From positions 1-29,766 of the IMG/VR virus record IMGVR_UViG_2541047966_000011: 29,766 bases of DNA, one strand, 5' to 3'. This document shows positions 5,760 through 29,766 of the stretch, one piece after another. Both the position numbers and the translations under genes were made by a program. The DNA is from a virus. Taxonomy: Duplodnaviria; Heunggongvirae; Uroviricota; Caudoviricetes. Positions within the stretch are counted from its first letter, which is position 1, and each line of letters begins with the position of its first letter. The notes beneath the pieces were generated by a model. It saw only the letters and a program-made list of their open reading frames with translations. It made no database searches and was not told the origin of the DNA.

Positions 5760-5807
5760 TTTGCTGCTCCTCATCATATCGACCCTGCAAGGTCGGTTGG
5801 TTTATCC

Positions 5808-5896
5808 ACAAAACAGAGAAGAACACCTGCGGTGGCAGCCGCCCGGATGGATTGGGTTATGAGCCCGTCGTCCGGTGATGTTCTTCTCTGTTTTGT
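5808..5896 (-). promoter_or_regulatory. 18-bp perfect inverted repeat forming a long stem-loop in the early-left leader
   Basis: ACAAAACAGAGAAGAACA at 5808-5825 is the exact reverse complement of 5879-5896, with a 53-nt loop. It sits 36 nt upstream of the RBS of the first early-left gene and is not followed by a U-tract. Confidence 0.45.
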
Positions 5897-6445: not shown

Positions 6446-7120
6446 TTAGGCCTTTATTTTGTATCTTCTTGGTTTTCCTGAGAAAATTACTGTACCAATT
6501 ATAGAGCAATTACCGTTGATCTTAATGTAAGGTTCAGGCCAGTTTGGGTTTAATGCTTTGAGGTAACGCTGTGTTCCATCTTCTATCAACCGCTTAAAGG
6601 TGGTTTCGCCTGTATCGTGCATCAATGCAATAACGTCGTCACCGTGGCAGGCAGGGACTTCAGGATCTACAAAAATCATGTCTCCCGGGCGGTACTCATC
6701 AATCATTGAATCACCAATCACCCGCAAGATATAAGTCATTTCGCCACAGGGTACAGGGCAGGGATAAGTTTCTGCTGTGCTCAAATCAACCTCAGAATAG
6801 CCAACTTCTTTCCATGCTCCGGCCTGTACCCATGATATGACAGGGACTAACGTTATTTGTTTGTTAGTAATTGAAACATCAGGTTTTTTTGTGATGTTTG
6901 TTGTCTGGTGTTCTTGATCAAGCCATCCGACAGGCAGGTCGAAACATTTTTCGATGTGCCGTGCCATGCTGTCACCGATATTTTTAGTAGCACCATCTCC
7001 CATAAACCTGCTGGTCTGGGTTGGCTCGCGATCAATCATGGTGGCAAAGGAAGAATTCCCGCCAACACCATCTCTCAGTTTTCTGGCGTTAGACCGCCGG
7101 ATGTCATGGACTGTTTTCAT
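6446..7120 (-). CDS. CI-like prophage repressor with N-terminal HTH and C-terminal S24 (LexA-like) peptidase domain
   Basis: 224 aa. The C-terminal half contains GDSM (catalytic Ser context) and a downstream Lys, typical of S24 autocleaving repressors. Divergent from the Cro-like gene. No SD upstream of the ATG, so the mRNA may be leaderless. Confidence 0.85.
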   Translation of the reverse strand: MKTVHDIRRSNARKLRDGVGGNSSFATMIDREPTQTSRFMGDGATKNIGDSMARHIEKCFDLPVGWLDQEHQTTNITKKPDVSITNKQITLVPVISWVQAGAWKEVGYSEVDLSTAETYPCPVPCGEMTYILRVIGDSMIDEYRPGDMIFVDPEVPACHGDDVIALMHDTGETTFKRLIEDGTQRYLKALNPNWPEPYIKINGNCSIIGTVIFSGKPRRYKIKA

Positions 7121-7442: not shown

Positions 7443-8006
7443 ATGAGGCTAACCGTGGGTAAGCATCACTGGAAAGTAGAAAAACAGCCTGAGTGGTACG
7501 TGAAAGCTGTCAGAAAAACTATCGCGGCGTTGCCGGGGGGTTACGCTGAAGCTGCTGAGTGGCTGGATGTAACAGAGAACGCTTTATTCAACCGCCTTCG
7601 TGCAGATGGCGATCAGATTTTCCCGCTGGGATGGGCAATGATTTTACAGCGCGCGGCTGGCACTCACTACATTGCGGATGCTGTCGCACAGTCTGCTGGT
7701 GGGGTGTTTGTATCGCTTCCTGAAATTGAGGAAGTAGAGAACGCCGATATAAACCAGCGCCTGCTGGAAGTCATCGAACAGATCGGGAGTTACTCAAAGC
7801 AGATTCGTTCGGCAATCGAAGATGGGGTAGTGGAGCCACACGAGCAGACAGCAATTAATGATGAGTTGTATCTGTCAATTTCGAAGCTCCAGGAACATGC
7901 AGCACTGGTCTACAAAATCTTTTGCGCTCCAGAAAAGAGTGACGCCCGCGAGTGTGCAGCTCCGGGCGTCGTGGCGTTTTGTGTCTGTGGAGAAACTAAC
8001 GCATGA
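7443..8006 (+). CDS. CII-like regulator (YdaT-family-like)
   Basis: 187 aa immediately after the Cro-like gene, the position CII occupies in lambdoid phages. Family assignment from memory, not a visible motif. Confidence 0.5.
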   Translation: MRLTVGKHHWKVEKQPEWYVKAVRKTIAALPGGYAEAAEWLDVTENALFNRLRADGDQIFPLGWAMILQRAAGTHYIADAVAQSAGGVFVSLPEIEEVENADINQRLLEVIEQIGSYSKQIRSAIEDGVVEPHEQTAINDELYLSISKLQEHAALVYKIFCAPEKSDARECAAPGVVAFCVCGETNA

Positions 8007-8151
8007 ACAGTTTAACGGCAAATAACCGTTTGTCGCAACAGCTGGTGGTCAGTGTCGCTGCACACCTGTTGTTACGGCATGAATGCAGATTACCAAATCA
8101 CCTGGCTGTAAGTAACCACAGAGAACTTTACCTGACTGTGGGGGGCGAGTT

Positions 8152-8331
8152 GTGCAGGAACTTAACCGCTGGTTTCGTGACGGAAGAGGACTTTATGTTC
8201 ATGTTATTCGTTGGGAGCCAGAAACACAGCGCGTTATCTATCTTCGCAAAGACTACCCGCATGAGTGCTTTAGTCCTTTGTGGAAATTCAGGCGTGATTT
8301 TGTTGAGTGTGAAGGACCACCAGCACATTGA
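8152..8331 (+). CDS. small hypothetical protein (59 aa), uncertain
   Basis: Not in the ORF track. GTG start after a G-rich stretch (GGGGGGCGAG); translation VQELNRWFRDGRGLYVHVIRWEPETQRVIYLRKDYPHECFSPLWKFRRDFVECEGPPAH. Protein-like composition but no recognised family. Confidence 0.3.
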   Translation: MQELNRWFRDGRGLYVHVIRWEPETQRVIYLRKDYPHECFSPLWKFRRDFVECEGPPAH

Positions 8332-8608
8332 TTCTGCCATTCCGGGACGTTACACTGTTCAGGCACCTTATAAAACGGGTGCCGGGATTGGCGTCCTGAA
8401 ATTGATTACTGAGCATAACCGCGCTCATGCGGTTTTTTCGTGTCATGAGCATTGCTACGCCCAAATTATGGTGGGGCGTACAGGGCCGACTTCGGTCGGG
8501 CCGGGTTCGGTAGTCTCCGGTAACGCCAACCCTGTACGTCTCACCACCTCTGTGATTGGCGTCCCATGTGGTGAGTTTTCTAAAAAACTGACTACCGGGG
8601 CTGTCACC

Positions 8609-9166
8609 ATGACTACTCTCCCAACCCTCTCTCAACCTGAAATTGCCATCGTTGATGGTCAGGCTGTTACATCTTCTTTGGCTGTTGCTGACTTCTTCTC
8701 TAAACGTCATGACGATGTTCTGAAAAAGATCCGCATTTTGGATTGTTCTCCAGAGTTTTGTGCCCGCAATTTTGCGGAGACATCAATTTTGGTACGCCAG
8801 CCCAACGGCGGTACTCGCAAACTTCCTTGCTATCAAATAACCCGCGACGGCTTTGCGTTTCTTGCTATGGGTTTCACGGGGAAACGTGCTGCCCAGTTCA
8901 AAGAGGCATACATCAATGCCTTTAACCAGATGGAGAAACAGCTTTCAAAGCCCTCTGTACCGAGCGACGTTGCACATAACGCCAGCGTTCTCTGTTCCTA
9001 CATTTCATCAATTCATCAGGTCTGGTTGCAGCAGCTTTATCCCATGCTGGAAAAAGCTGAATCACCGCTGGCTGTAAGTCTGTATGACCGAATTAACGAT
9101 GCGGCATTTCTTGCCCGTCTTATTCATTCGTCGCTGAACTCTTCAGAGGTAAGGGGGCGCAAATGA
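8609..9166 (+). CDS. rha: phage regulatory protein Rha
   Basis: From ATG 8609: MTTLPTLSQPEIAIVDGQAVTSSLAVADFFSKRHDDVLKKI...PCYQITRDGFAFLAMGFTGKRAAQFKEAYINAF, a typical Rha N-terminal pattern. The ORF-track frame runs from 8003, but the upstream 200 codons look non-genic. Confidence 0.7.
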   Translation: MTTLPTLSQPEIAIVDGQAVTSSLAVADFFSKRHDDVLKKIRILDCSPEFCARNFAETSILVRQPNGGTRKLPCYQITRDGFAFLAMGFTGKRAAQFKEAYINAFNQMEKQLSKPSVPSDVAHNASVLCSYISSIHQVWLQQLYPMLEKAESPLAVSLYDRINDAAFLARLIHSSLNSSEVRGRK

Positions 9167-9387
9167 TCCGGAATATTTTCAAACGATTTACCAATCAGAC
9201 TTTCCGTTGTCCTCGCCCCGGTCAGTGGTACACCACGCCTGCAGGGCATGTTCTACGTGTTAGCCTGGTTGACCGTGAATGTCAGAAGGTGGTTTGTGAA
9301 CCGCTGGGCCGTAATTACCGCGTCAGTATGCCGCTTATAGCCTTTTGCTCCGGAAAAAACATGAAGCATCTCGGAGGTGCAGCATGA
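9163..9387 (+). CDS. hypothetical protein (74 aa)
   Basis: Start overlaps the rha stop (ATGA) and stop overlaps the next gene start (ATGA), consistent with translational coupling. No recognised domain. Confidence 0.45.
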   Translation: MIRNIFKRFTNQTFRCPRPGQWYTTPAGHVLRVSLVDRECQKVVCEPLGRNYRVSMPLIAFCSGKNMKHLGGAA

Positions 9388-10202
9388 GTATGGAGCTGAT
9401 GGTTAAAGCGATGAAAATTCGAGTGGGTAATCCATTGCGAAAACTGGTTCTGATCAAGCTGGCTGATAATGCCAGCGATCAGGGTGAGTGCTGGCCCAGC
9501 TATCAGCATATTGCTGACCAGTGCGAGATTAGCAAACGTTCTGTGATGAATCATATTGCGGCCCTTTGTGAGTCCGGGCTGGTAAAAAAAGTCACCCGGA
9601 AAGGTGAAAAAGGTAACTCAAGTAATATCTATCTCCTTCATCTGGATGGTGCAGGAGATTCACTAGGGGGTAGTGCAAATAATTCACTATCTGGTGCAGC
9701 AAATTCACCAGGTAGTGCAGGAGTTGCACCAGGGGGTAGTGCAGGAGATTCACCCAGAACCAGTCACTCTTTTGAACCAGTCAAAGAACCAGTCAATGAA
9801 CCAATAGCTGTTGGTGCATCAGTTGATGAGTCCGTGCGAGTTCGTTCAAACCGACCGGAATACTCTCCGGAGTTTGAGCAGGCATGGCTGGTATATCCCA
9901 AACGTGCTGGTGGCAATTCAAAATCTGCAGCCTTCAAAGCCTGGAAAGCCCGTTTGAATGAGGGAGTAAACCCCGAAACCATGCTGGAAGGTGTGAAACG
10001 CTACGCGGGATGGGTATCTGCGATGGGTAACAGCGGCACACAATTTGTGAAACAGGCTGTCACGTTCTTTGGTCCGGATCGTCATTTCGAAGAATTCTGG
10101 GAAGTTCCTGCGGTATCTGCAGCCAGACGCGAGGACCCGTACTTCAAAGCCAGTTACGACAACGTGGACTACAGCCAGATCCCGGCAGGATTCAGGGGGT
10201 GA
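9384..10202 (+). CDS. replication initiator (O-like) with N-terminal HTH and a DnaT-like C-terminal region
   Basis: N-terminal LVLIKLADNASDQGECWPSYQHIADQCEISKRSVMNHIAALCESGLVK looks like the HTH of phage replication initiators; C-terminal EQAWLVYPKRAGGNSKSAAFKAWKARL is DnaT-like as recalled. GGAGGTG upstream; the start could be ATG 9384 or 9390, and the ORF-track start at 9345 is TTG. Confidence 0.7.
   Translation: MSMELMVKAMKIRVGNPLRKLVLIKLADNASDQGECWPSYQHIADQCEISKRSVMNHIAALCESGLVKKVTRKGEKGNSSNIYLLHLDGAGDSLGGSANNSLSGAANSPGSAGVAPGGSAGDSPRTSHSFEPVKEPVNEPIAVGASVDESVRVRSNRPEYSPEFEQAWLVYPKRAGGNSKSAAFKAWKARLNEGVNPETMLEGVKRYAGWVSAMGNSGTQFVKQAVTFFGPDRHFEEFWEVPAVSAARREDPYFKASYDNVDYSQIPAGFRG
9648..9755. 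repeat. iteron-like direct repeats inside the initiator gene (candidate replication origin)
   Basis: About five imperfect copies of a GGTGCAGGAGATTCAC-like unit at roughly 22-bp spacing (starts near 9648, 9671, 9693, 9714, 9738). They encode a Gly/Ser/Ala-rich linker and are followed by GAACCAGTCAA-type repeats at 9771-9800. Confidence 0.5.
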
Positions 10203-10204
10203 TC

Positions 10205-10693
10205 ATGAGTCTTTTGAATGAAGTTCAGAAATTCATTGAAGCCCATCCGGGGTGTACTTCCGGAGACATTGCGGATGCTTTTGCAGGTTACTCACGGCAG
10301 CGCGTTCTGCAGTCAGCAAGCAAGTTACGTCAGAGTGGGCGTGTGGCTCACCGTTGTGAAGGAGATACACGCAGACATTTCCCACGCCTGACTGAGAGAG
10401 CGCAGGAGCCGGAACCACAACCAGTTCGTGAAACCAGACCTGTGCGCAATTTCTATGTCGGCACTAACGATCCCCGGGTGATTTTGTGCCTGACCCGCCA
10501 GGCGGAAGAACTGGAGTCCAGGGGCTTATACCGTCGTGCTGCAACGGTGTGGATGGCGGCATTCCGTGAAAGCCACTCCCAGCCAGAACGAAACAATTTT
10601 CTGGCGCGTCGTGAGCGGTGCTTACGGAAAAGCAGCAAGCGCGCTGTATCGGGTGAAGAGTGGTATCTGTCAGGGAATTACGTGGGGGCTTAA
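10205..10693 (+). CDS. putative transcriptional regulator; winged-HTH-like N-terminus, C-terminus reminiscent of PerC/ANR-type small regulators (uncertain)
   Basis: ATG at 10205 lies 5 nt after GGGGG; the ORF-track start at 10199 is GTG. Arg-rich C-terminal half. Stop overlaps the methyltransferase start (TAATG). Confidence 0.45.
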   Translation: MSLLNEVQKFIEAHPGCTSGDIADAFAGYSRQRVLQSASKLRQSGRVAHRCEGDTRRHFPRLTERAQEPEPQPVRETRPVRNFYVGTNDPRVILCLTRQAEELESRGLYRRAATVWMAAFRESHSQPERNNFLARRERCLRKSSKRAVSGEEWYLSGNYVGA

Positions 10694-17802: not shown

Positions 17803-17927
17803 TAATAATTCTCAACTGTCTGAGGGGAGGGGCGGGTCAAATCCCTGCAGCCTGACGTCTTCCGGACTGCCCGCCCCATCGTTTTTTTATACCCGCGAAA
17901 AATGAAATTTAACCAGGAGTGCCGCAT
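17803..17927 (+). other. candidate cos/packaging recognition region
   Basis: Intergenic gap between HNH and terminase small subunit containing the G-rich inverted repeat GGGGCGGG...CCCGCCCC and a T7 run. Location matches cos in HK97-like phages; end sequences are unknown. Confidence 0.3.
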
Positions 17928-18422
17928 ATGGCTGGAACGGCGGGGCGTTCCGGGCGTCGCCCCAAGCCAACAGCGCGCAAGGCGCTGGCCGGAAACCCCG
18001 GCAAGCGAGCCCTGAACAAAGATGAACCTGTTTTTACGCCCATCAAAGGTGTTGAGCCACCGGAGTGGTTCGCTGAAGAAGATCTCCCTCTCGCCACGAT
18101 CATGTGGCAACTGACAACCAAAGAACTCTGCGGTCAGGGCCTGCTGTGCGTGACTGACCTCGCGGTACTTGAGCGGTGGTGCGTGGCCTATGAGTTCTGG
18201 CGACGTGCCGTGAAAAATATTGCCAGACAGGGCAACACCATCACCGGTGCAATGGGCGGCAGGGTCAAAAATCCGGAGCTGACCGCCAAAAAAGAACAGG
18301 AGTCCGAGATGAGCAGCACGGGGGCAATGCTCGGACTCGACCCCAGCAGCCGCCAGCGTCTGATTGGCCTGGCGGGGCAGAAGAAAGCCACTAACCCGTT
18401 TCTGAAAATCATCGAGTCATGA
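17928..18422 (+). CDS. terminase small subunit (P27-family-like)
   Basis: ATG at 17928 with GGAG 8 nt upstream; the ORF-track start at 17919 is GTG. Basic N-terminus (GRSGRRPKP) and immediately upstream of the large subunit. Confidence 0.75.
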
Positions 18423-20152
18423 GCCGGAAATCTTACCCCAACGTAAATGCAGCCAATCAGTATGCCCGTGATGTCGTGCGCGGAAAGATTGTGGCCTGCC
18501 AGTTTGTGATTCAGGCCTGCCAGCGCCATCTTGATGACCTGATGGCGGAAAAAAGTAAGTCGTTTCGTTACCGCTTCGACAAGGACCTGGCTGAACGGGC
18601 CGCGAAATTTATTCAGCTGTTGCCACACACCAAGGGGGAGTGGGCATTCAAACGGATGCCCATCACGCTGGAGCCGTGGCAGCTCTTTGTGATCTGCTGC
18701 GCGTTTGGCTGGGTCAATAAAGGCTCCCGGCTGCGCCGCTTCCGGGAGGTGTATACCGAAATCCCCCGTAAGAACGGCAAATCGGCAATCTCTGCCGGTG
18801 TTGCCCTGTATTGTTTTGCCTGTGATAACGAGTTCGGCGCGGAAGTGTATTCCGGTGCCACGACAGAGAAACAGGCATGGGAAGTCTTTCGCCCGGCGCG
18901 ACTGATGTGTAAACGCACACCCATGCTGACGGAAGCGTTCGGGATTGAGGTTAACGCCTCAAACATGAACCGTCCGGAGGATGGTGCGCGGTTTGAACCG
19001 CTGATCGGTAACCCCGGTGATGGTTCATCACCCCACTGTGCCGTGGTGGATGAATATCACGAGCACGCCACAGATGCGCTTTACACCACGATGCTTACCG
19101 GGATGGGGGCGCGACGTCAGCCACTGATGTGGGCTATCACCACTGCCGGGTACAACATTGAGGGACCGTGCTACGACAAGCGGCGGGAAGTCATCGAGAT
19201 GCTCAACGGCTCGGTGCCTAACGATGAACTGTTCGGGATCATCTATACCGTTGATGAAGGTGACGACTGGACCGACCCGCAGGTGCTGGAAAAAGCCAAT
19301 CCAAATATTGGCGTGTCGGTTTATCGCGAATTTTTGTTAAGTCAGCAGCAGCGTGCGAAAAATAACGCCCGTCTGGCAAACGTCTTTAAAACAAAACACC
19401 TCAATATCTGGGTGTCGGCGCGTTCGGCGTATTTCAACCTGGTGAGCTGGCAGAGCTGCGAGGATAAATCACTGACCCTTGAGCAGTTCGAGGGGCAGCC
19501 GTGCATTCTGGCCTTTGACCTGGCGCGTAAGCTGGATATGAACAGCATGGCGCGACTTTATACCCGCGAGATTGACGGTAAAACGCATTACTACAGTGTA
19601 GCCCCGCGTTTCTGGGTACCGTATGACACGGTGTACAGCGTCGAGAAAAATGAAGATCGACGGACAGCCGAACGCTTTCAGAAATGGGTGGAAATGGGCG
19701 TTCTGACCGTTACCGATGGTGCGGAGGTGGATTATCGCTACATCCTCGAGGAGGCCAAAGCGGCGAACAAAATCAGCCCGGTCAGTGAGTCACCCATCGA
19801 CCCCTTCGGGGCGACCGGGCTGTCGCATGACCTTGCTGATGAAGACCTGAACCCCATCACCATCATTCAGAACTACACCAACATGTCCGATCCGATGAAA
19901 GAGCTGGAAGCGGCGATTGAATCGGGGCGCTTTCATCATGACGGCAATCCCATCATGACCTGGTGTATCGGCAACGTGGTCGGCAAAACCATTCCGGGTA
20001 ACGATGATGTGGTGAAGCCTGTCAAGGAGCAGGCGGAAAACAAAATTGATGGTGCGGTTGCACTGATTATGGCGATCGGTCGGGCAATGCTTAAAGAACC
20101 CGACGATTTCCTCTCATCTCTTAATCCGGACGATGATCTCTTAATTCTATGA
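18419..20152 (+). CDS. terminase large subunit
   Basis: 577 aa; size, position, N-terminal ATPase-like region and C-terminal nuclease-like acidic residues are consistent with TerL. Start overlaps the TerS stop (ATGA). Confidence 0.9.
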
Positions 20153-20310
20153 AATCACTAATTGCTGATGTTATCGGGCTGGCTGGTTTTGGCCTGCTTA
20201 CGTGCGGGTTTTACCTGCAGTTTGGTATGGCTCCGGCTCTGATGCTGTCCGGCGGTTTACTGCTGGTGGGCGCACTGGCTATGGCCAGAAGGGGGACGCG
20301 TGCTGCTTGA
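20149..20310 (+). CDS. small hydrophobic membrane protein (53 aa)
   Basis: Not in the ORF track. ATG overlaps the TerL stop (ATGA); translation [53 protein letters not shown] predicts two TM helices. Confidence 0.45.
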
Positions 20311-21526
20311 TGCTCTGTTCAGAAGTAAATCACTGGAGAATCCTTCCACCCCGATAACCGGGGATGCCGTTGATACTGATGGGCTGTTCCGGGCAGACGT
20401 TTATGTCAGTCCTGAAACTGCGATGAAACTGGCTGCGGTGTATTCCTGTATCTATGTCCTGTCTTCCAGCCTTGCCCAGATGCCGTTGCATGTTATGCGC
20501 AGGCACAATGGGAAGGTTGAGCCCGCACGCGATCATCCGGCGTTTTATCTGGTTCATGATGAGCCCAATACCTGGCAAACCAGTTACAAATGGCGCGAAC
20601 TGAAGCAACGTCACATCCTTGGCTGGGGGAATGGGTATACCTGGGTGAAACGTAATCGTCGCGGTGAAGTCATATCCCTGGATTGCTGTATGCCGTGGGA
20701 AACGACGCTGATGAATACTGGTGGCCGATATACCTATGGTTTGTATAACGAATATGGGGCGTTTGCGATCAGCCCCGACGATATGATCCACATCCGTGCG
20801 CTGGGTAATAATCAGAAGATGGGGCTGAGTCCGATTATGCAACATGCCGAAACAATAGGCATGGGGATGAGCGGTCAGAAATACACAGAAAGCTTCTTCA
20901 GCGGTAATGCCCGTCCGGCGGGGATAGTATCCGTTAAAAGCGGACTCAATAAGGACAGCTGGGGCTGGCTTAAAGATCAGTGGCAGAAGGCATCGCAGGC
21001 GTTACGCAGCCAGGAAAACAAAACCATGCTGCTGCCAGCCGATCTGGATTACAAGGCACTGACTGTGTCGCCAGTTGACGCTCAAATCATTGACATGATG
21101 AAACTGAACCGTTCAATGATTGCCGGTATTTTCAATATTCCGGCGCACATGATTAATGACCTCGAAAAAGCCACCTTCTCCAATATTTCTGCGCAGGCGA
21201 TTCAGTTTGTCCGCTACACGATGATGCCGTGGGTGACGAACTGGGAGCAGGAGCTTAACCGTCGCTTGTTTACCCGCGCTGAGTTAGCCGCCGGGTATTA
21301 CGTCAGGTTCAATCTGACGGGGCTTTTACGCGGAACTCCGCAGGAGCGCGCGCAATTCTACCACTTCGCTATTACCGATGGATGGATGAGCCGTAATGAG
21401 GCCCGCGCATTCGAGGATATGAATCCGGTTGAAGGGCTGGATGAGATGCTGGTAAGCGTGAACGCTGCTAACCCGGCAGGAGATTTTAAGCCCCCAAAAA
21501 ACGATGAGGGAAAAACCAATGAATGA
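20300..21526 (+). CDS. portal protein (HK97 family)
   Basis: 408 aa directly downstream of the terminase, with the size and position of HK97-type portals. GTG start. Confidence 0.85.
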   Translation: MLLDALFRSKSLENPSTPITGDAVDTDGLFRADVYVSPETAMKLAAVYSCIYVLSSSLAQMPLHVMRRHNGKVEPARDHPAFYLVHDEPNTWQTSYKWRELKQRHILGWGNGYTWVKRNRRGEVISLDCCMPWETTLMNTGGRYTYGLYNEYGAFAISPDDMIHIRALGNNQKMGLSPIMQHAETIGMGMSGQKYTESFFSGNARPAGIVSVKSGLNKDSWGWLKDQWQKASQALRSQENKTMLLPADLDYKALTVSPVDAQIIDMMKLNRSMIAGIFNIPAHMINDLEKATFSNISAQAIQFVRYTMMPWVTNWEQELNRRLFTRAELAAGYYVRFNLTGLLRGTPQERAQFYHFAITDGWMSRNEARAFEDMNPVEGLDEMLVSVNAANPAGDFKPPKNDEGKTNE

Positions 21527-22121
21527 CCGTGAAATCCGTTGTTACAGCGGTGAGGTGCGTGCTGAGAGGCATGACGATAACCCGGCGCACATTATCGGTT
21601 ATGGAGCGGTGTTTGACTGTCGTTCTGAGCTGATATTCGGTTCATTCCGCGAAATCATCCGGCCAGGCGCTTTTGACGATGTGCTTGGTGATGATGTACG
21701 CGCACTGTTTAACCACGATCCTAATTTTATTCTTGGGCGTAGTGCAGCAGGCACGCTGAATCTTTCAGTTGATGAGCGCGGATTACGCTATGACATCCAG
21801 GCTCCGGAGACACAGACCATTCGTGATCTGGTGCTGGCCCCGATGCAACGTGGAGATATTAACCAGTCATCTTTCGCTTTCCGTGTCGCCCGTGACGGTG
21901 AGGAGTGGTATCAGGATGAGGATGGGGTTGTTATTCGCGAGATAACCCGCTTTTCCCGTCTGCTGGATGTCAGTCCTGTGACATATCCTGCCTATCAGGA
22001 GGCTGATTCGGCTGTTCGCTCCATGAAAGCATGGCAGGAGGCGCGCAACAGTGGCGCGCTCCAGAAAGCCATTAATCAACGTATGGCGCGTGAACGCGTC
22101 CTGACCCTTCTTAACGCGTAA
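21519..22121 (+). CDS. prohead maturation protease (HK97 family)
   Basis: ATG at 21519 (MNDREIR...) overlapping the portal stop. About 200 aa between portal and major capsid genes. Confidence 0.8.
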   Translation: MNDREIRCYSGEVRAERHDDNPAHIIGYGAVFDCRSELIFGSFREIIRPGAFDDVLGDDVRALFNHDPNFILGRSAAGTLNLSVDERGLRYDIQAPETQTIRDLVLAPMQRGDINQSSFAFRVARDGEEWYQDEDGVVIREITRFSRLLDVSPVTYPAYQEADSAVRSMKAWQEARNSGALQKAINQRMARERVLTLLNA

Positions 22122-22131
22122 AGGAAACATC

Positions 22132-23361
22132 ATGAAACTGCATGAACTGAAACAGAAACGTAATACTATCGCAACTGACATGCGCGCCCTGAATGAAAAA
22201 ATTGGTGATAACGCATGGACGGAAGAGCAGCGCACTGAGTGGAACAAAGCAAAATCCGAACTGGAAGCGCTTGATGAACGAATTGCACGCGAAGAAGAAC
22301 TGCGTCGTCAGGATCAGGCGTACATTGAAAGCAATGAGGAAGAGCAGCGTCAGAATCTTGATCCGGAAAACAATCCGCAACAGGATGAGAAACGAGCTCA
22401 GGTTTTTGATAAGTGGATGCGTCACGGTGCCAGTGAGCTGACATCAGAAGAACGAAAGGCGTTGCGTGAACTTCGTGCCCAGGGTGTAGCTCAGGATGAA
22501 AAGGGCGGATATACCGTACCAGAAACATTCCTGGCGAAAGTTGTTGAGAAGATGAAATCCTACGGTGGCATCGCCAGTGTGGCGCAGATTCTGACCACTT
22601 CTGACGGTCGCACTATGGAGTGGGCAACAGCTGATGGTACTTCCGAAGTTGGTGTTCTGCTGGGCGAAAATGAAGAAGCCGGTGAAGAAGACACCGATTT
22701 CGGTATGGGAAGCCTTGGGGCGCTCAAAATGACATCGAAAATAATTCGTGTGTCTAATGAGTTGCTGCAGGACAGTGCGATCGATATGGAAGCTTATCTT
22801 GCCCGTCGCATTGCTGAACGTATTGGTCGTGGTGAAGCCCGTTATCTGATTCAGGGGACGGGGGCTGGTACGCCTAAACAACCCAAAGGGCTGGCAGCAT
22901 CAGTGACCGGCACAACACAGACTGCCGCGGCAAATGCGGTGAAGTGGCAGGAAATTCTGGCTCTGAAACACAGCATTGATCCTGCATATCGTCGCGGACC
23001 GAAATTCCGCCTGGCGTTTAACGATAATACGCTGAAACTGATCAGTGAGATGGAAGACGGTCAGGGACGCCCTTTATGGTTGCCGGATATTGTTGGTGTG
23101 GCACCTGCTTCAGTGTTGAATGTACCGTATGTCATTGATCAGGAAATTGATGATATCGGGGTGGGTAAAAAATTCATGTTCTGTGGTGACTTTGATCGCT
23201 TCATTATCCGTCGTGTGCGATACATGATTCTTAAACGTCTGGTTGAGCGTTACGCGGAATATGATCAGACCGGTTTTCTGGCCTTCCATCGTTTTGACTG
23301 TATCCTGGAAGACACCTCTGCCATTAAAGCGCTGGAGGGGAAAGGTAGCGTTGGTGGTTGA
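22132..23361 (+). CDS. major capsid protein (HK97 fold) with N-terminal delta/scaffold domain
   Basis: 409 aa; the first ~100 residues are a charged coiled-coil (delta domain) and the rest is an HK97-like capsid body. AAGGAAAC upstream. Confidence 0.9.
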   Translation: MKLHELKQKRNTIATDMRALNEKIGDNAWTEEQRTEWNKAKSELEALDERIAREEELRRQDQAYIESNEEEQRQNLDPENNPQQDEKRAQVFDKWMRHGASELTSEERKALRELRAQGVAQDEKGGYTVPETFLAKVVEKMKSYGGIASVAQILTTSDGRTMEWATADGTSEVGVLLGENEEAGEEDTDFGMGSLGALKMTSKIIRVSNELLQDSAIDMEAYLARRIAERIGRGEARYLIQGTGAGTPKQPKGLAASVTGTTQTAAANAVKWQEILALKHSIDPAYRRGPKFRLAFNDNTLKLISEMEDGQGRPLWLPDIVGVAPASVLNVPYVIDQEIDDIGVGKKFMFCGDFDRFIIRRVRYMILKRLVERYAEYDQTGFLAFHRFDCILEDTSAIKALEGKGSVGG

Positions 23362-23385
23362 TTAGTCTTTTTACGTAATACAGAA

Positions 23386-23407
23386 CGCCGCGTAATGCGG
23401 TTTTTTT
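23386..23407 (+). terminator. intrinsic terminator after the capsid gene (likely partial)
   Basis: CCGC-gtaat-GCGG followed by TTTTTTT, 27 nt past the capsid stop. A second 8-bp hairpin GTGCCCGC-gttctg-GCGGGCAC follows at 23408-23429, just before the next RBS. Confidence 0.5.
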
Positions 23408-23439
23408 GTGCCCGCGTTCTGGCGGGCACAGGAGGTTTT

Positions 23440-23763
23440 ATGCTGTTAAAAATGGAAGAGATTAAGCTTCAGCTTCGTCTGGATGATGATTTCTCTGATG
23501 AAGATGAGTTGCTTGAACTGCTTGGGAAGGCCGCTCAGAGTCGGACGGAAAACTTCCTTAACCGTACGTTGTATGCAACCGCAGATGACAGGCCTGCGGA
23601 TGATTCTGATGGGCTTGTGATATCTGATGATGTGAAGCTTGCGCTCCTGCTACTTGTCAGCCATTTCTACGAAAACCGCTCAACGGTTACAGACGTTGAG
23701 AAAATGGAGTTGCCAATGAGTTTTAACTGGTTGGTTGCTCCTTATCGCCTTATACCACTATGA
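23440..23763 (+). CDS. head-tail connector (gp6-like adaptor)
   Basis: ATG at 23440 (MLLKMEEIKLQLRLDDDFSDEDELL...) with GGAGG upstream. The ORF-track start at 23395 would overlap the terminator. Confidence 0.6.
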   Translation: MLLKMEEIKLQLRLDDDFSDEDELLELLGKAAQSRTENFLNRTLYATADDRPADDSDGLVISDDVKLALLLLVSHFYENRSTVTDVEKMELPMSFNWLVAPYRLIPL

Positions 23764-24170
23764 AAATTCGTCAGGCGCAGACCAGCGCAACCTACATTCT
23801 GCCGGACCCCGGCGAACTGAATAAACGCGTCCTGATCCGCCAGCGGGTGGATATGCCCGCGGATAACTTTGGCGTGGAGCCTCAATACCCGGTTGCGTTC
23901 CGGGCATGGGCGAAGGTTATCCAGACCAGTGCCACCACCTGGCAGGAAACCGCGCAGACCGGAGATGCCATCACCCATTACATCACCATTCGCTACCGCC
24001 GGGGGATCACTGCTGATTATGAGGTGGTCTGTGATGACAGTGTGTACCGGGTGAAACGTCAGCGCGATCTGAACGGGGCGCGGCGCTTTCTGCTGCTGGA
24101 GTGTACGGAACTGGGCGAATTTACGCAGAGTCACGGAGGCAGCAATGGCGACTCCCTTTTTTCACGTTGA
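23760..24170 (+). CDS. head closure / head-tail joining protein
   Basis: 136 aa in the conserved position after the gp6-like gene; start overlaps the previous stop (ATGA). Confidence 0.5.
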   Translation: MKIRQAQTSATYILPDPGELNKRVLIRQRVDMPADNFGVEPQYPVAFRAWAKVIQTSATTWQETAQTGDAITHYITIRYRRGITADYEVVCDDSVYRVKRQRDLNGARRFLLLECTELGEFTQSHGGSNGDSLFSR

Positions 24171-24651
24171 TGTTCAGCAGCCCGCGGAGATGCGCTTTAA
24201 CCGCGCCCGTGTCCGGCGGGCGTTTGTCACGATTGGGCAGCGTCATATGCGTGATGCCCGTCGGCTGGTGATGCGCCGTGCGCGGTCGGCACCGGGTGAA
24301 AACCCCGGTTATCAGACCGGACGCCTGGCTCGTTCGATTGGTTACATGGTGCCGAGAGCCAGTAAAAAGCGAGCCGGTTTTATGACACGCATTGCCCCTA
24401 ACCAGCGCAACGGGAAGGGGAACCGGATGATCTCTGGTGACTTCTATCCGGCGTTTCTGTTTTTTGGTGTCCGGGGAGGAGCAAAACGTCGTCGTAGTCA
24501 TCATCGTGGTGCATCCGGTGGCAGCGGCTGGCGGCTGGCTCCACGTAATAACTTTATGGTGGAAACTCTTGAAAAGAACCGCAGCTGGACACGCTATTTT
24601 CTGGCGCGGGAATTGCGTAAATCACTGAAGCCGGAGCGACGACACAGATGA
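24145..24651 (+). CDS. HK97 gp10-like tail/neck component
   Basis: 168 aa, basic; GGAGG 5 nt upstream of the ATG. Overlaps the previous gene by 26 nt. Family from memory. Confidence 0.5.
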   Translation: MATPFFHVDVQQPAEMRFNRARVRRAFVTIGQRHMRDARRLVMRRARSAPGENPGYQTGRLARSIGYMVPRASKKRAGFMTRIAPNQRNGKGNRMISGDFYPAFLFFGVRGGAKRRRSHHRGASGGSGWRLAPRNNFMVETLEKNRSWTRYFLARELRKSLKPERRHR

Positions 24652-25208
24652 AACTGACGCCTGTTATTGCTGCGCTGCGTGCCCGCTGCCCGTATTTTGA
24701 AAACCGGGTGGCAGGCGCGGCACAGTTCAAAAATCTGCCGGAGGTCGGAAAGCTGAGACTCCCGGCGGCGTATGTGGTACCGGGTGATGACTCTCCGGGA
24801 GAAAACAAAAGCCAGACCGACTACTGGCAGGAGCTGAAAGAGGGCTTCTCCGTGGTTGTCATACTGAGTAACGGGCGTGATGAGCGCGGTCAGTTTGCCT
24901 CGTATGATGTGGTGGACGATGTCCGGCAGATGCTCTTTAAGGCCCTGCTGGGCTGGAACCCGGAAGCGTGCGGTAACCCGATTACCTATGACGGCGGCAC
25001 GCTGCTGGATCTGAATCGTCATGAGCTGATTTATCAGTTCGATTTTTCGGTCATCAGCGAGCTGACTGAAGACGATACCCGCCAGCAGGATGAGCTGAAC
25101 AGTCTGGATGAACTGCGAACGCTGGCGATTGATGTTGATTATCTCGATCCCGGTAACGGGCCTGACGGCGATATCGAACATCACACCGAAATAACCCTTC
25201 CTTCCTGA
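24648..25208 (+). CDS. putative tail completion/terminator protein upstream of sheath
   Basis: 186 aa, acidic C-terminus, start overlaps the previous stop (ATGA). Assignment by position only. Confidence 0.45.
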   Translation: MKLTPVIAALRARCPYFENRVAGAAQFKNLPEVGKLRLPAAYVVPGDDSPGENKSQTDYWQELKEGFSVVVILSNGRDERGQFASYDVVDDVRQMLFKALLGWNPEACGNPITYDGGTLLDLNRHELIYQFDFSVISELTEDDTRQQDELNSLDELRTLAIDVDYLDPGNGPDGDIEHHTEITLPS

Positions 25209-25216
25209 GGATCATC

Positions 25217-25387
25217 ATGTTTGTGAAACCTGTTAAAGGGCGGTCGGTACCTGACCCTGCCCGCGGCGACCTTTTGCCCGCCGAGGGGCGAAATGTTGAT
25301 GAGAACAACTACTGGCTGCGCCGTGAAGCAGTGGGTGATATCCGGCGCGTGAATGAAAAGGTGAATACCGATGACGATAAGCTTTAA
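25217..25387 (+). CDS. small hypothetical protein (56 aa)
   Basis: Not in the ORF track. ATG at 25217 after GAGGA; translation MFVKPVKGRSVPDPARGDLLPAEGRNVDENNYWLRREAVGDIRRVNEKVNTDDDKL; overlaps the sheath start. Confidence 0.4.
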   Translation: MFVKPVKGRSVPDPARGDLLPAEGRNVDENNYWLRREAVGDIRRVNEKVNTDDDKL

Positions 25388-26867
25388 CACCATTCCGTCG
25401 AATACGCTGGTTCCGCTGTTTTATGCGGAAATGGATAACTCGGCGGCGAATACTGCACAGGACAGCGGAGCATCACTGCTGATTGGTCATGCCAATAACG
25501 GTGCAGAGATTGTTGCCAACAGTCTGGTGCTGATGCCGTCGGCAGACTATGCACGTCAGATTTGTGGTGCGGGAAGTCAGCTGGCGCGTATGGTCGAGGC
25601 TTATCGCCAGACCGACCCGTTTGGTGAGCTGTATGTGATTGCCGTTCCTGAATCCACGGGCGCGGCGGCAACGGTTACGCTGACGGTGACCGGGGCGGCA
25701 ACCGAAACCGGCACGGTAAATGTTTATGTGGGACGTACCCGCGTGCAGGCACCGGTGACCAACGGCGATAACGTCGCGACGATTGCCAGCAATATCAAGG
25801 ATGCCATCAATGCCGTTCCGGCTCTGCCGTTTACGGCCTCATCTTCGGCAGGTGTGGTCACGCTGACCGCGCGTCATAAGGGGCTTTGCGGGAATGAAAT
25901 TCCTGTCAGCCTCAATTACTACGGCTTTGGTGGGGGCGAAGTGCTGCCAGCGGGCGTACAGATTGCCGTGGCGGCGGGGACCGCCGGAACGGGCGCTCCT
26001 GTTCTCACCGGCGCGGTGGCTGCAATGGCGGATGAGCCGTTTGATTATATCGGTCTGCCGTTCAACGACACTGCCTCCGTTAACACGCTGGTGACCGAGA
26101 TGAACGATACCAGCGGTCGCTGGAGCTATGCGCGTCAGCTGTATGGTCATGTGTATACGGCAAAGATCGGCACGTTGTCAGAACTGGTGACCGCAGGTGA
26201 TCAGTTTAACCAGCAGCACATTACCCTGGCGGGGTACGAAAAAGAGACCCAGACGCCTGCCGACGAGCTGGCGGCAAGCCGTACCGCCCGCGCAGCGGTG
26301 TTTATTCGCAACGATCCGGCACGTCCCACGCAGACCGGTGAGCTGGTGGGTATGCTGCCTGCGCCGAAGGGGAAACGGTTCACGATGACCGAACAACAGA
26401 CCCTGCTGTCTCATGGCGTGGCAACGGCGTATGTCGAAAGCGGGGTACTGCGCATTCAGCGTGATGTCACCACGTACAGGAAAAACGCTTACGGGGTTGC
26501 GGATAACAGCTACCTCGACAGTGAGACGCTGCATACCAGCGCGTATGTACTGCGCAAACTGAAATCCGTCATTACCAGTAAGTACGGGCGTCACAAGCTT
26601 GCCAGTGACGGTACCCGCTTTGGTCCCGGTCAGGCGATTGTCACCCCGGCGGTGATCAAAGGGGAACTGCTGGCAACCTACCGTCAGCTTGAGCGTGCGG
26701 GGATCGTGGAAAACTACGAACTGTTTAAGCAGTACCTGGTTGTGGAGCGTGATGCCAGCGATCCGAACCGCCTGAACACGCTGTTCCCGCCTGACTATGT
26801 TAACCAGTTGCGTGTCTTTGCCGTGGTTAACCAGTTCCGTCTTCAGTATTCAGAGGAGTCTGCATAA
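25371..26867 (+). CDS. contractile tail sheath protein
   Basis: 498 aa, followed by a ~118-aa tube gene, a frameshifted chaperone pair, a tape measure gene and a Mu N-like gene, the canonical myovirus order. Confidence 0.7.
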   Translation: MTISFNTIPSNTLVPLFYAEMDNSAANTAQDSGASLLIGHANNGAEIVANSLVLMPSADYARQICGAGSQLARMVEAYRQTDPFGELYVIAVPESTGAAATVTLTVTGAATETGTVNVYVGRTRVQAPVTNGDNVATIASNIKDAINAVPALPFTASSSAGVVTLTARHKGLCGNEIPVSLNYYGFGGGEVLPAGVQIAVAAGTAGTGAPVLTGAVAAMADEPFDYIGLPFNDTASVNTLVTEMNDTSGRWSYARQLYGHVYTAKIGTLSELVTAGDQFNQQHITLAGYEKETQTPADELAASRTARAAVFIRNDPARPTQTGELVGMLPAPKGKRFTMTEQQTLLSHGVATAYVESGVLRIQRDVTTYRKNAYGVADNSYLDSETLHTSAYVLRKLKSVITSKYGRHKLASDGTRFGPGQAIVTPAVIKGELLATYRQLERAGIVENYELFKQYLVVERDASDPNRLNTLFPPDYVNQLRVFAVVNQFRLQYSEESA

Positions 26868-27223
26868 TGGCCCGTATCGGGGGAACCTGTTATTTCAAAA
26901 TTGACGGTCAGCAGCTATCGCTGACCGGCGGCATTGAGGTGCCCATGAACAGGACGGTTAATGATGACATCATCGGCCTGGACGGTTCAGTGGACCGCAA
27001 GGAAACTCACCGTGCACCTTATGTCAAAGGGACCTTCAAGGTGCCGAAGAATTTTCCGGTGAGCAAAATCACCTCGTCTGATGAGATGACCATCACTGCC
27101 GAGCTGGCGAACGGTCAGGTCTATGTATTGTCGTCCGCCTGGCTGCACGGTGAAGCGAACCATAATGCCGAAGAAGGCACGGTTGATCTTGAGTTCCACG
27201 GTGAAGAAGGGGATTACCAGTAA
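26867..27223 (+). CDS. tail tube protein
   Basis: 118 aa immediately after the sheath; start overlaps the sheath stop (TAATG). Confidence 0.65.
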   Translation: MARIGGTCYFKIDGQQLSLTGGIEVPMNRTVNDDIIGLDGSVDRKETHRAPYVKGTFKVPKNFPVSKITSSDEMTITAELANGQVYVLSSAWLHGEANHNAEEGTVDLEFHGEEGDYQ

Positions 27224-27492
27224 TGAAAGAGCTTGAGTTAAAGAAACCGATTACTGCTCATGGCGAGACATTCTCCGTACTGGAGTTTGATGAGCCCACC
27301 GGGAAGGATGTCCGCGAGCTGGGGTATCCCTACCAGATGAATCAGGATGAGTCCGTCAGACTTCTGGCGCATGTGGTGTCGAAATACATTGTGCGGCTGG
27401 CGAAAGTGCCGCAAAGCTCTGTCGACCAGATGTCTCCGGCAGACCTGAATGCAGCGGCGTGGCTTGTGGCTGGTTTTTTCCTCCAGGCCTGA
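27223..27492 (+). CDS. tail assembly chaperone (short form)
   Basis: 89 aa between the tube and tape measure genes; start overlaps the tube stop. Confidence 0.65.
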   Translation: MKELELKKPITAHGETFSVLEFDEPTGKDVRELGYPYQMNQDESVRLLAHVVSKYIVRLAKVPQSSVDQMSPADLNAAAWLVAGFFLQA

Positions 27493-27641
27493 CGGCTGAA
27501 TACCTCACTGATCGCTTCTTTGACTGCGCCAGCTACTGGCGCATTAATCCTTTCGAATTGCTGAATATGCCGATCAGTGAAATTCCCTTACTGGTCAGTC
27601 AGGCAAACAGGATAGAGCAGGAGAAACGCACACATGGCTGA
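27459..27641 (+). CDS. tail assembly chaperone -1 frameshift extension (long form 27223..27641)
   Basis: Slippery heptamer T TTT TTC at 27474-27480 lies in the zero frame of the short chaperone, 12 nt before its stop. The -1 frame continues ...FFPPGLTAEY... to a stop at 27641, overlapping the tape measure start. Confidence 0.55.
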   Translation: MACGWFFPPGLTAEYLTDRFFDCASYWRINPFELLNMPISEIPLLVSQANRIEQEKRTHG

Positions 27642-29469: not shown

Positions 29470-29493
29470 TGAAAAATTAATCTGTTAATGAGT

Positions 29494-29515
29494 CCCACTC
29501 CGGTGGGATTTTTTA
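29494..29515 (+). terminator. intrinsic terminator after the tape measure gene
   Basis: TCCCAC-tccg-GTGGGA followed by TTTTTT. Confidence 0.6.
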
Positions 29516-29529
29516 TGTACGGAGTTTAT

Positions 29530-29766
29530 ATGACGTGGAAAGACAGACTTCAGGACGCGTCATTTCGCGGTGTGCCGTTTAAGGTTGAAGAAGAAAGTGC
29601 GGGAACCGGTCGTCGTGTGGAAACGCACGAATACCCGAACCGCGACAAACCCTATACCGAAGACCTGGGGAAAATCACTTTCCGCCCGTCCATCACAGCT
29701 TATGTGGTGGGAGATGACTGCTTTGACCAGCGCGATCGCCTGATTGACGCGCTGAATAAACCCGGT
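29530..29766 (+). CDS. DNA circularization protein (Mu gpN-like), N-terminal part; 3' end truncated by the window
   Basis: ATG at 29530 after GGAG; N-terminus MTWKDRLQDASFRGVPFKVEEESAGTGRRVETHEYPNRDKPYTEDLG resembles Mu N-type proteins, which follow the tape measure gene. The ORF runs off the window end. Confidence 0.6.
   Translation, partial: MTWKDRLQDASFRGVPFKVEEESAGTGRRVETHEYPNRDKPYTEDLGKITFRPSITAYVVGDDCFDQRDRLIDALNKPG

Follow-up and report, generated by a model that had tools for sequence, protein, structure and literature searches.

The 29,766-nucleotide stretch of DNA analysed here (IMG/VR virus record IMGVR_UViG_2541047966_000011, Caudoviricetes; hereafter the window) is part of a phage genome and contains an early and a structural region of lambdoid prophage type. 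Positions 9384-10202 hold a gene for a 272-amino-acid (aa) protein which, judged by its domain and family matches, is the replication initiator of this phage. The middle of the gene carries five short dyad-symmetric repeats (iterons), followed by a 47-bp block, termed the core, whose sequence is conserved across the family of related genes. We consider it likely that the segment 9649-9802, comprising iterons and core, is the replication origin of the phage, situated inside the gene of its own initiator. The gene is organized as follows (GC, content of guanine plus cytosine; pLDDT, predicted local distance difference test score; ORF, open reading frame):

9384-10202 (+), replication initiator gene, 272 aa (ORF list, Pfam, PHROGs)
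9384-9647 (+), coding region of the winged-helix N-terminal domain (N-domain), aa 1-88 (AlphaFold2 pLDDT 80-93, Foldseek)
9528-9569 (+), recognition helix I49-C62, ISKRSVMNHIAALC, within the modelled helix 51-64
9607-9640, AT-rich stretch left of the array, candidate secondary unwinding region (20-bp GC 0.25-0.30, the lowest-GC 20-mers of the gene)
9649-9663, iteron 1, GTGCAGGAGATTCAC
9673-9687, iteron 2, GTGCAAATAATTCAC
9694-9708, iteron 3, GTGCAGCAAATTCAC
9715-9729, iteron 4, GTGCAGGAGTTGCAC, with perfect 5-bp arms GTGCA/TGCAC
9739-9753, iteron 5, GTGCAGGAGATTCAC, two bases (CC in the window) from the core, as in all relatives
9756-9802, core, 47 bp, AGAACCAGTCAC TCTTTT GAACCAGTCAAA GAACCAGTCAAT GAACC (sequence conservation across the family)
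9855-10199 (+), helical C-terminal domain (C-domain), aa 158-272 (helices 162-229, moderate pLDDT, AlphaFold2)

The N-domain of the initiator contains an HTH_36 domain (Pfam, E 1.8e-11, aa 17-67) with a KLADNA motif, and the whole protein matches PHROG 270, 'replication initiation protein', with E 1e-87. A match to Pfam DnaD_N is weak (E 3.6e-5, below the Pfam cut-off), and Phage_rep_O, the model of the lambda O family, gave no Pfam match at E <= 0.01. An earlier note on this DNA had called the gene 'O-like', a description that fits its layout and does not extend to its family, which is HTH_36 without Phage_rep_O. The AlphaFold2 model was built on a shallow alignment of 24 sequences and reaches a mean pLDDT of 60, lowered by disordered regions; in the N-domain it consists of helices 3-11, 17-29, 40-47 and 51-64 and a beta-hairpin wing (67-73/79-85). 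Foldseek searches with the full model returned winged-helix proteins only, including the DnaD N-domain 2v79, all with E > 0.01 and over the N-domain only. Most of the N-domain is nearly invariant among relatives and the recognition helix is its variable part, with invariant columns on both sides; variation is therefore concentrated where a winged helix reads bases.

Residues 91-157 are predicted to be disordered and lie between the confidently modelled N-domain and the helical C-domain. The C-terminal half matches PHROG 1701, 'DnaD-like helicase loader' (E 8e-33), and PHROG 26426, with labels that include 'primosomal protein'; its annotation consists of these PHROG labels, as it has no match in Pfam (even at E = 10), NCBIfam or the sequences of the Protein Data Bank (PDB). 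We presume that the C-domain is a replisome- or helicase-recruiting module that can be exchanged between relatives, because of the PHROG labels and because the loader or helicase gene found downstream differs with the type of C-domain.

The five iterons share the form GTGMA-N5-TKCAC, stand in register and start 24, 21, 21 and 24 bp apart. About five units had been proposed in the earlier note; the unit itself had to be redrawn, as it is a 15-bp dyad (plus a T at -2) and not a direct repeat of 16-18 bp. Tandem Repeats Finder detects periods of 21 and 24 with scores of 55 and 62, as well as a 12-bp array at 9774-9803 with a score of 53. The pattern GTGMANNNNNTKCAC has 5 matches on both strands of the window, all of them iteron units, compared with 0.2 expected in shuffled sequence and 0/100 shuffles that reach 5; because the units themselves supplied the pattern, this test shows their uniqueness and carries no independent significance. 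The array is in frame within the initiator gene and encodes G89-P124, a Gly/Ser/Ala-rich segment inside the predicted disordered region, which bears out the proposal that the repeats encode an interdomain linker. The second type of repeat said to follow the array was also recovered: GAACCAGTCA is present in exactly three copies directly downstream (9757-9766, 9774-9783 and 9786-9795) and nowhere else in the window without mismatch, and a degenerate fourth copy of this type, GAACCAATAG, is found at 9798. Just upstream of the array, the antisense strand carries a terminator-like hairpin with a T-run (9592-9607, -; TCACCTTTCCGGGTGA CTTTTTTTAC); such sites are no commoner than in shuffles.

The comparative set comprised about 200 relatives from phages and prophages of Gammaproteobacteria. 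The 1.5-kb segment around the array shares 98.7% DNA identity with mEp460, which we take to be a viable phage that must carry a working replicon, and 97-98% with several Stx2 (Shiga toxin 2)-converting phages. The N-domain is 98.9-100% identical to those of phage cdtI and Stx2a_WGPS2 (98.9% to the latter). The first five relatives that were read follow one plan, in which a conserved N-domain is followed by a lineage-specific tandem repeat of 21-24 bp, an identical block (CC AGA ACC AGT CAC TCT TTt GAA CCA GTC) and unrelated C-domains. The gene after the initiator varies as well, and encodes a DnaB-type helicase in a Stenotrophomonas phage, a P-like protein in a Klebsiella phage and a 'replisome organizer' in a Pseudomonas phage; no helicase, loader or organizer gene follows the initiator in the Vibrio phages read or in the window.

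Two larger samples were drawn from the relatives. The first, of 120 loci, was obtained by scanning viral contigs for exact matches to the block pattern and is thus ascertained on it; here the block lies in the same frame inside a KLADNA N-domain gene in 118/118 non-truncated loci. The second consists of 80 prophage loci found by N-domain peptides only, in a collection with one genome per species in which a few genomes give two or three loci; its hosts are Enterobacterales, Pseudomonas, Marinomonas, Shewanella, Aeromonas, Xenorhabdus, Halomonadaceae, Cardiobacteriaceae, Marinobacter and Microbulbifer. The core is kept in frame in about 77 of these 80 loci, with 0-7 mismatches of 35 or as a variant with a 3-nt insertion or deletion. 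Arrays of 3-6 dyads are present in every lineage. Of 137 non-redundant relatives, 118 have an array of 4 or 5 units (overall range 1-7); the units are spaced 21-25 bp apart (mean 22.5, about two helical turns), and the last unit always ends two bases before the core.

Unit number also varies on a short evolutionary scale. One 90%-identity protein cluster of the initiator has 2,852 member sequences, in which the 5-unit form is by far the commonest, and close relatives with at least 90% identical proteins carry 1, 2, 5, 7, 8 or 9 units at protein lengths of 242-302 aa (P0042, P0028, P0016, P0021, P0008 and P0001/P0002/P0024). The 12-bp GAACCAGTCAAx unit of the core varies by one copy in either direction, with one extra in P0018 and L056 and one fewer in L076, which looks like repeat-number polymorphism of the origin through unequal recombination. 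In P0041, from E. coli, an in-frame deletion removes the last iteron and the whole core (the equivalent of about 9730-9815 in the window), joining …GSAGVAPG to VGASADES…; it apparently arose between GGTGCA repeats, and P0041 is probably an origin-defective prophage reminiscent of the in-frame ori- deletions of lambda.

Two more distant initiators have a similar layout. In mEp044 (L210, about 1777-1900), GTGACACAGAGTCAC occurs four times in alternating frames and is followed by a diverged core, TAACCAGTCATATATAACCAGTAA. The HTH_36 initiator of SfII (L209, 1717-1878) contains a dyad-containing 15-bp repeat, TCAAAATCTGACSCG, about five times in its linker and then GATCCGTCAG twice; the core is absent from the SfII initiator gene, and the habit of placing an origin in the linker would therefore be broader than the core-bearing subfamily.

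The dyad arms are lineage-specific (GTGCA/TGCAC, TGCCA/TGGCA, GGGCA/TGCCC, TAGGC/GCCTA, GTGTA/TACAC and GTGAC/GTCAC) and often form perfect palindromes. Each type of arm is associated with its own type of recognition helix:

S[KR]RSV[MI]xH, half-site GTG[CA]A
SK[ST]AVRxH, half-site TGCC[AG]
DRSTVR[KR]H, half-site TAGGC
GRSTVK[VL]H, half-site GGGCA
..MR.. (xMR), half-site GTGAC, a pairing seen with three helix contexts, one of them in the more distant mEp044

Across 61 distinct helix sequences, not one is found with a second half-site class. The mutual information between helix residue and half-site class is highest at R52, S53 and M55 (permutation p < 0.001, ignoring shared ancestry). The specificity of the winged-helix initiator thus appears to match the repeats in its own gene.

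The repeats seem, moreover, to be kept as DNA and not as protein. In a logo of 404 units of the GTG class, positions 1-3, 5, 11 and 13-15 exceed 1.8 bits and the spacer stays below 1, and among 15 distinct arrays that share the window geometry, 2/40 arm-core positions are variable compared with 23/67 elsewhere (Fisher p = 3e-4). These data bear on the simplest alternative, namely that the array is a low-complexity Gly/Ser/Ala linker generated by slippage, which provides flexibility and has no function as DNA. Slippage of this kind would account for a disordered linker at this place, for the expansion and contraction of the unit number in close relatives, as in other tandem repeats, and for the presence of some low-complexity peptide here in every lineage. 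However, a constant dyad geometry and 21-25-bp phasing go together with peptides that are wholly different between lineages (GSAGDSP, PMPPKSIA, GVGPEST, SENFALG and PSDRMSP). In 68/137 arrays the reading frame changes from one unit to the next, and a spacing of 23 + 22 bp restores it; the identical 15-mer GTGCAGGAGATTCAC is read as SAGDSP in the lineage of the window and as VQEIHQ in another. Since the arms are also invariant while the spacers drift, and the half-site tracks the recognition helix, we regard a mere linker as highly improbable.

The strongest nucleotide-level constraint in the gene lies in the GAACCAGTCA-containing block and not in the Gly/Ser/Ala-coding array. The sample chosen on the N-domain gives the core consensus AGAAyCAGTmACTCTyyTGAAyCAGTCAwnGAACC, and the window core equals the family consensus plus one extra 12-bp unit; across the whole family, two to four copies of GAAyCAGTmA stand next to the array. 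For two sequences with the same amino acid at a position, the probability of an identical codon is 0.92 in the core, compared with 0.42 in the N-domain (65 codons) and 0.36 at the next codon. Per-codon identity is 0.84-1.0 at 13 codons (GCA CCC AGA ACC AGT CAC TCT TTT GAA CCA GTC AAT GAA). Amino acids of the core shift by single transitions (T to I in 30/69, H to N in 11/69), and synonymous changes are almost absent; as amino acids change while codons stay, selection acts on the nucleotide sequence of the core and not on its peptide. In line with this, sensitive blastn detects the segment 9750-9799 at 90-97% DNA identity in phages of Vibrio and Stenotrophomonas, although the DNA on either side of it has diverged beyond recognition. 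The core is also a local GC minimum (0.37-0.43 compared with 0.5-0.64 in the flanks), most clearly in high-GC hosts, and a second family-wide dip in GC lies 150 to 130 bp upstream of it.

Conservation of this kind could have a cause other than initiation. The core might act as a signal in the messenger RNA (for translation pausing, or as a target of a small RNA or an RNase), or it might be a patch for recombination between N- and C-modules. The nucleotide-level constraint is explicable by an RNA signal too, and the class of the C-domain changes immediately after the core, which makes this a module junction. Recombination alone, however, imposes no purifying selection on synonymous sites across phages of Vibrio, Pseudomonas, Stenotrophomonas, Shewanella and enterobacteria whose neighbouring codons are saturated, and an RNA signal would need a trans-acting factor conserved across all these hosts. 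Rfam gave no family for 9500-9950 (only a chance microRNA match below threshold), and the single-strand fold of 9640-9810 is no better than that of shuffles (z = -0.73). The fixed gap of two bases between the last iteron and the core favours a partnership with the array at the DNA level, and a cause unrelated to initiation seems quite improbable to us.

Two further candidates at the core were examined and dropped. A perfect 10-nt inverted match between 9443-9452 and 9755-9764 (ACTGGTTCTG/CAGAACCAGT) was considered as a long-range partner of the core; the upstream codons are not conserved as DNA in relatives, where Val is mostly GTG, and the match is probably due to chance. Programmed frameshifting at TCT TTT GAA was abandoned because the out-of-frame stop is absent in TTA variants. 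A search for sigma-70-like promoters, internal or antisense, found none in 9100-10400.

Computation thus establishes the anatomy of the repeats, the identity and domain layout of the initiator, the conservation of this architecture across the family, the covariation of helix and half-site, and constraint on the nucleotides of arms and core. From these results we infer initiator binding, a site of unwinding, a route of helicase recruitment and the start of replication at 9649-9802. In the mechanism that we propose, winged-helix dimers of the N-domain would bind the five dyad-symmetric 15-bp iterons, and because the spacing of 21-24 bp corresponds to about two helical turns, they would sit on roughly one face of the DNA. 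By analogy with lambda, the phased dimers would wrap the DNA into an O-some-like nucleoprotein complex, which would destabilize the adjacent 47-bp core. The core, with its direct GAACCAGTCA 10-mers and relatively AT-rich composition, would serve as the unwinding or helicase-entry element. Its sequence-specific reader would be either the invariant face of the initiator or a host replisome protein that is highly conserved, as the invariance of the core from Vibrio to Stenotrophomonas hosts suggests. The exchangeable C-domain would recruit the host helicase, presumably directly or via host DnaC, since no phage helicase or loader gene is present here. Rightward early transcription, from an equivalent of pR predicted from gene order, would pass through the site. 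The proposal in the earlier note of a lambda-style origin at this place agrees with every computational test that was run, including initiator identity, dyads, covariation and DNA-level conservation.

A regulatory role of the array deserves separate consideration. The repeats could be genuine binding sites of the initiator that act in autoregulation or copy control, as an operator-like roadblock or through 'handcuffing', with replication starting elsewhere. Plasmid iterons do mediate autorepression and handcuffing as well (PMC4980987), the site lies within the initiator's own transcription unit, and copy numbers between 1 and 9 among close relatives would be tolerable for a regulatory site. 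Yet no other repeat array or dyad match exists in the 29.8-kb window, which covers only part of the phage, and the array always stands at one set distance from an invariant block that is relatively AT-rich and contains direct 10-mers, an arrangement that belongs to an origin and not to an operator. With the lambda origin as a precedent at exactly this position, we judge a purely regulatory function improbable.

Several observations weigh against an origin at 9649-9802. At about 57-63% AT, the core is no classical AT-rich tract. Neither a DnaA box (TTATCCACA, with at most one mismatch) nor an integration host factor (IHF) consensus is present within 9430-10340, and GC skew gives no independent signal, as its cumulative minimum at about 7 kb coincides with the divergent cI/cro switch and tracks transcription. 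The lack of an adjacent helicase-loader gene in the window leaves the recruitment step unexplained. The presence of 1-9 units among close relatives shows that the number five is not strictly required, although some of the prophages concerned may be defective. On the side of method, the script that finds the units rewards likeness to the last unit and palindromy, which favours dyads, and the covariation statistics ignore phylogeny. Nothing is known about the replication of Eru phages (PMC8951638). Finally, the searchable literature contains no binding or replication experiment for this initiator family, and origin function therefore stays an inference.

We put forward a bolder reading only tentatively: the 35-47-bp block might be a previously undescribed, universal origin core of replicons across Gammaproteobacteria (here Escherichia, Klebsiella, Vibrio, Shewanella, Aeromonas, Pseudomonas, Stenotrophomonas and Marinomonas), recognized sequence-specifically, perhaps as single-stranded DNA, and forming a fixed site of unwinding and helicase entry. 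If this were true, the origin would be a three-part, plug-and-play device whose specificity, melting site and host coupling each evolve independently, with iterons that diversify together with the recognition helix on the left of the core and swapped helicase-recruiting C-domains on its right.

The initiator gene is embedded in an early region with the following upstream genes:

6446-7120 (-), cI-like repressor (ORF list, Pfam)
7443-8006, cII-like gene (ORF list, Pfam)
8003-9166 (+), Rha/Ash ORF, 387 aa (ORF list, Pfam)
9163-9387 (+), small ORF, 74 aa, PHROG 1153, function unknown, with a TGA stop that overlaps the ATG of the initiator (ATGA)

The ATGA overlap suggests translational coupling of the small ORF and the initiator, and the same arrangement is present in cdtI, mEp460 and NZ_CP148393.1. 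Downstream, the initiator is followed in order by a PerC-family regulator, a Dam methylase, a LexA-like gene and RusA. The first of these genes (10205-10693, +), which sits where lambda has P, encodes a MarR-like winged helix (PHROG 1687, aa 6-68) joined to a C-terminal region of the PerC/ANR type (Pfam PerC, E 3e-9).

The ORF at 8003-9166 contains two Rfam matches at gathering level, both within 8363-8551 (+): the Hfq-binding RNA isrK (8363-8439, 60 bits) and the C4 antisense RNA (8464-8551, 82 bits). The Pfam Phage_ASH match (aa 117-212, nt 8351-8638) coincides exactly with them, and the Rha domain begins only at aa 223 of 387, with an in-frame ATG near 8612. This ORF may therefore run through an isrK/C4 small-RNA cassette ahead of a short Rha/Ant gene, a possibility that bears on the 'Rha/Ash' gene used in defining the Eru6, Eru7 and Eru9 phage types.

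The window contains a single perfect DnaA box (TTATCCACA), which lies at 5802-5810 (+) within the leftward early region and thus some 4 kb away from the proposed origin; matches with up to two mismatches are over-represented window-wide (109 compared with 79 expected). The right half (17900-29766) contains ORFs of the sizes of terminase, portal and capsid proteins and a 498-aa ORF (25371-26867) of the size of a contractile-tail sheath, which suggests an SfV-like myovirus with a lambdoid early region. No transfer RNA genes were found.

Several relatives of the initiator are found on circular replicons. The complete 44.6-kb circular relative NZ_CP148393.1, deposited as a plasmid, has the initiator as its only replication gene; O/P, helicase, loader and primase genes are absent anywhere in it. 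It is one of several circular 'plasmids' of about 28-54 kb in PLSDB that carry the initiator, from E. coli, Salmonella, Klebsiella, Shewanella, Pasteurella and Microbulbifer, together with many elements of Arsenophonus nasoniae. NZ_CP148393.1, the one PLSDB element examined in full, is a complete phage genome, and these circular elements are either assembled replicating phage DNA or phage-plasmids.

The initiator type is common, with 2,852 sequences in one cluster alone, and it forms the replication module of SfV, mEp460, cdtI and the 'Eru6' Shiga-toxin phages. Replication of Stx prophages after induction drives toxin gene dosage, and a proposed origin location together with a specificity code makes this step testable. 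The natural series of at least six half-site classes on one scaffold would be useful for studies of winged-helix recognition and for orthogonal replicons, and the core offers a mutable target for studying melting and helicase loading at an origin that has neither DnaA boxes nor a loader encoded by the phage. Differences in repeat number between prophages (1-9 units) may reflect origin strength or decay. For annotation, the locus is a warning that a low-complexity 'linker' encoded in a phage initiator gene can be cis-acting DNA.

Among known systems, the closest in gene content are the Shiga-toxin phages with a replication region of the 'Eru6' type, for which Stx2a_WGPS2 is the reference (PMC8951638). 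Together with SfV, mEp460 and cdtI, these share the gene order cI, cro, cII-like, Rha/Ash, small ORF, HTH_36 protein, PerC-like and Dam with the window (PMC8951638). The descriptions of Eru6 are, however, typings by gene content, without an origin, iterons or mechanism (PMC8951638). No origin features are annotated in the cdtI and mEp460 records, and we found no description of this origin, its iterons or its core in the searchable literature, outside of which lie older subscription papers on SfV and cdtI.

A second group of comparable systems is formed by Gram-positive replisome organisers with DnaD-like domains (SPP1 G38P with oriL, Tuc2009 and others), in which the origin lies in the organiser's own gene and the initiator binds repeats there. 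The window initiator resembles them in its weak DnaD_N match, the structural match to the DnaD N-domain and the PHROG label 'DnaD-like helicase loader' of its C-domain. These matches are weak, and the hosts here are Gammaproteobacteria; we know of nothing comparable to the invariant core in the Gram-positive systems.

Iteron plasmids (RK2 TrfA/oriV, F RepE, pPS10 RepA and R6K pi) resemble the window in having a winged-helix initiator, their Rep protein, and directly repeated sites at helical phasing. Unwinding elements of plasmids and chromosomes contain repeated 13-mers, to which initiators such as plasmid Rep proteins bind in single-stranded form and with sequence specificity (PMC4980987); by analogy, the 10-mers of the core could play the role of these 13-mers. 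The window origin would differ in lying inside the coding sequence of its initiator, in having dyads, which imply dimer binding, where plasmids have asymmetric monomer sites, and in the lack of DnaA boxes near the array. No sequence homology was detected between the initiator and the solved Rep structures.

The closest parallel in design is phage lambda. In lambda and in Stx phages, the origin lies in the middle of gene O, O binds imperfect 19-bp inverted repeats, and an adjacent AT-rich tract melts (PMC7466680). The lambda origin has four to six dyad sites of about 19 bp, phased at about two helical turns and bound by the N-domain, an easily melted region to their right, and transcription from pR through the site (PMC7466680). 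In gene O of lambda and of the Stx phages 933W and P27 the origin stands in the middle of the initiator gene, where the proposed origin of the window lies too, and in all of them the repeats encode an interdomain linker. Further origins of the lambda type are those of phages 82 and phi80 and of P22 gene 18. Unlike lambda O, however, the window initiator has an HTH_36 and not a Phage_rep_O N-domain, and its iteron sequence is unrelated. Where lambda has a plain AT-rich tract, the window has a block of invariant sequence with direct 10-mers, and its initiator gene is followed by a PerC-family regulator and then Dam instead of a P-like loader gene. The system is thus of lambda design by function and layout and lies outside the lambda O family by membership. 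What stands out here, in a widespread initiator family with an unmapped origin, is a clean specificity code and, unexpectedly, an invariant core.

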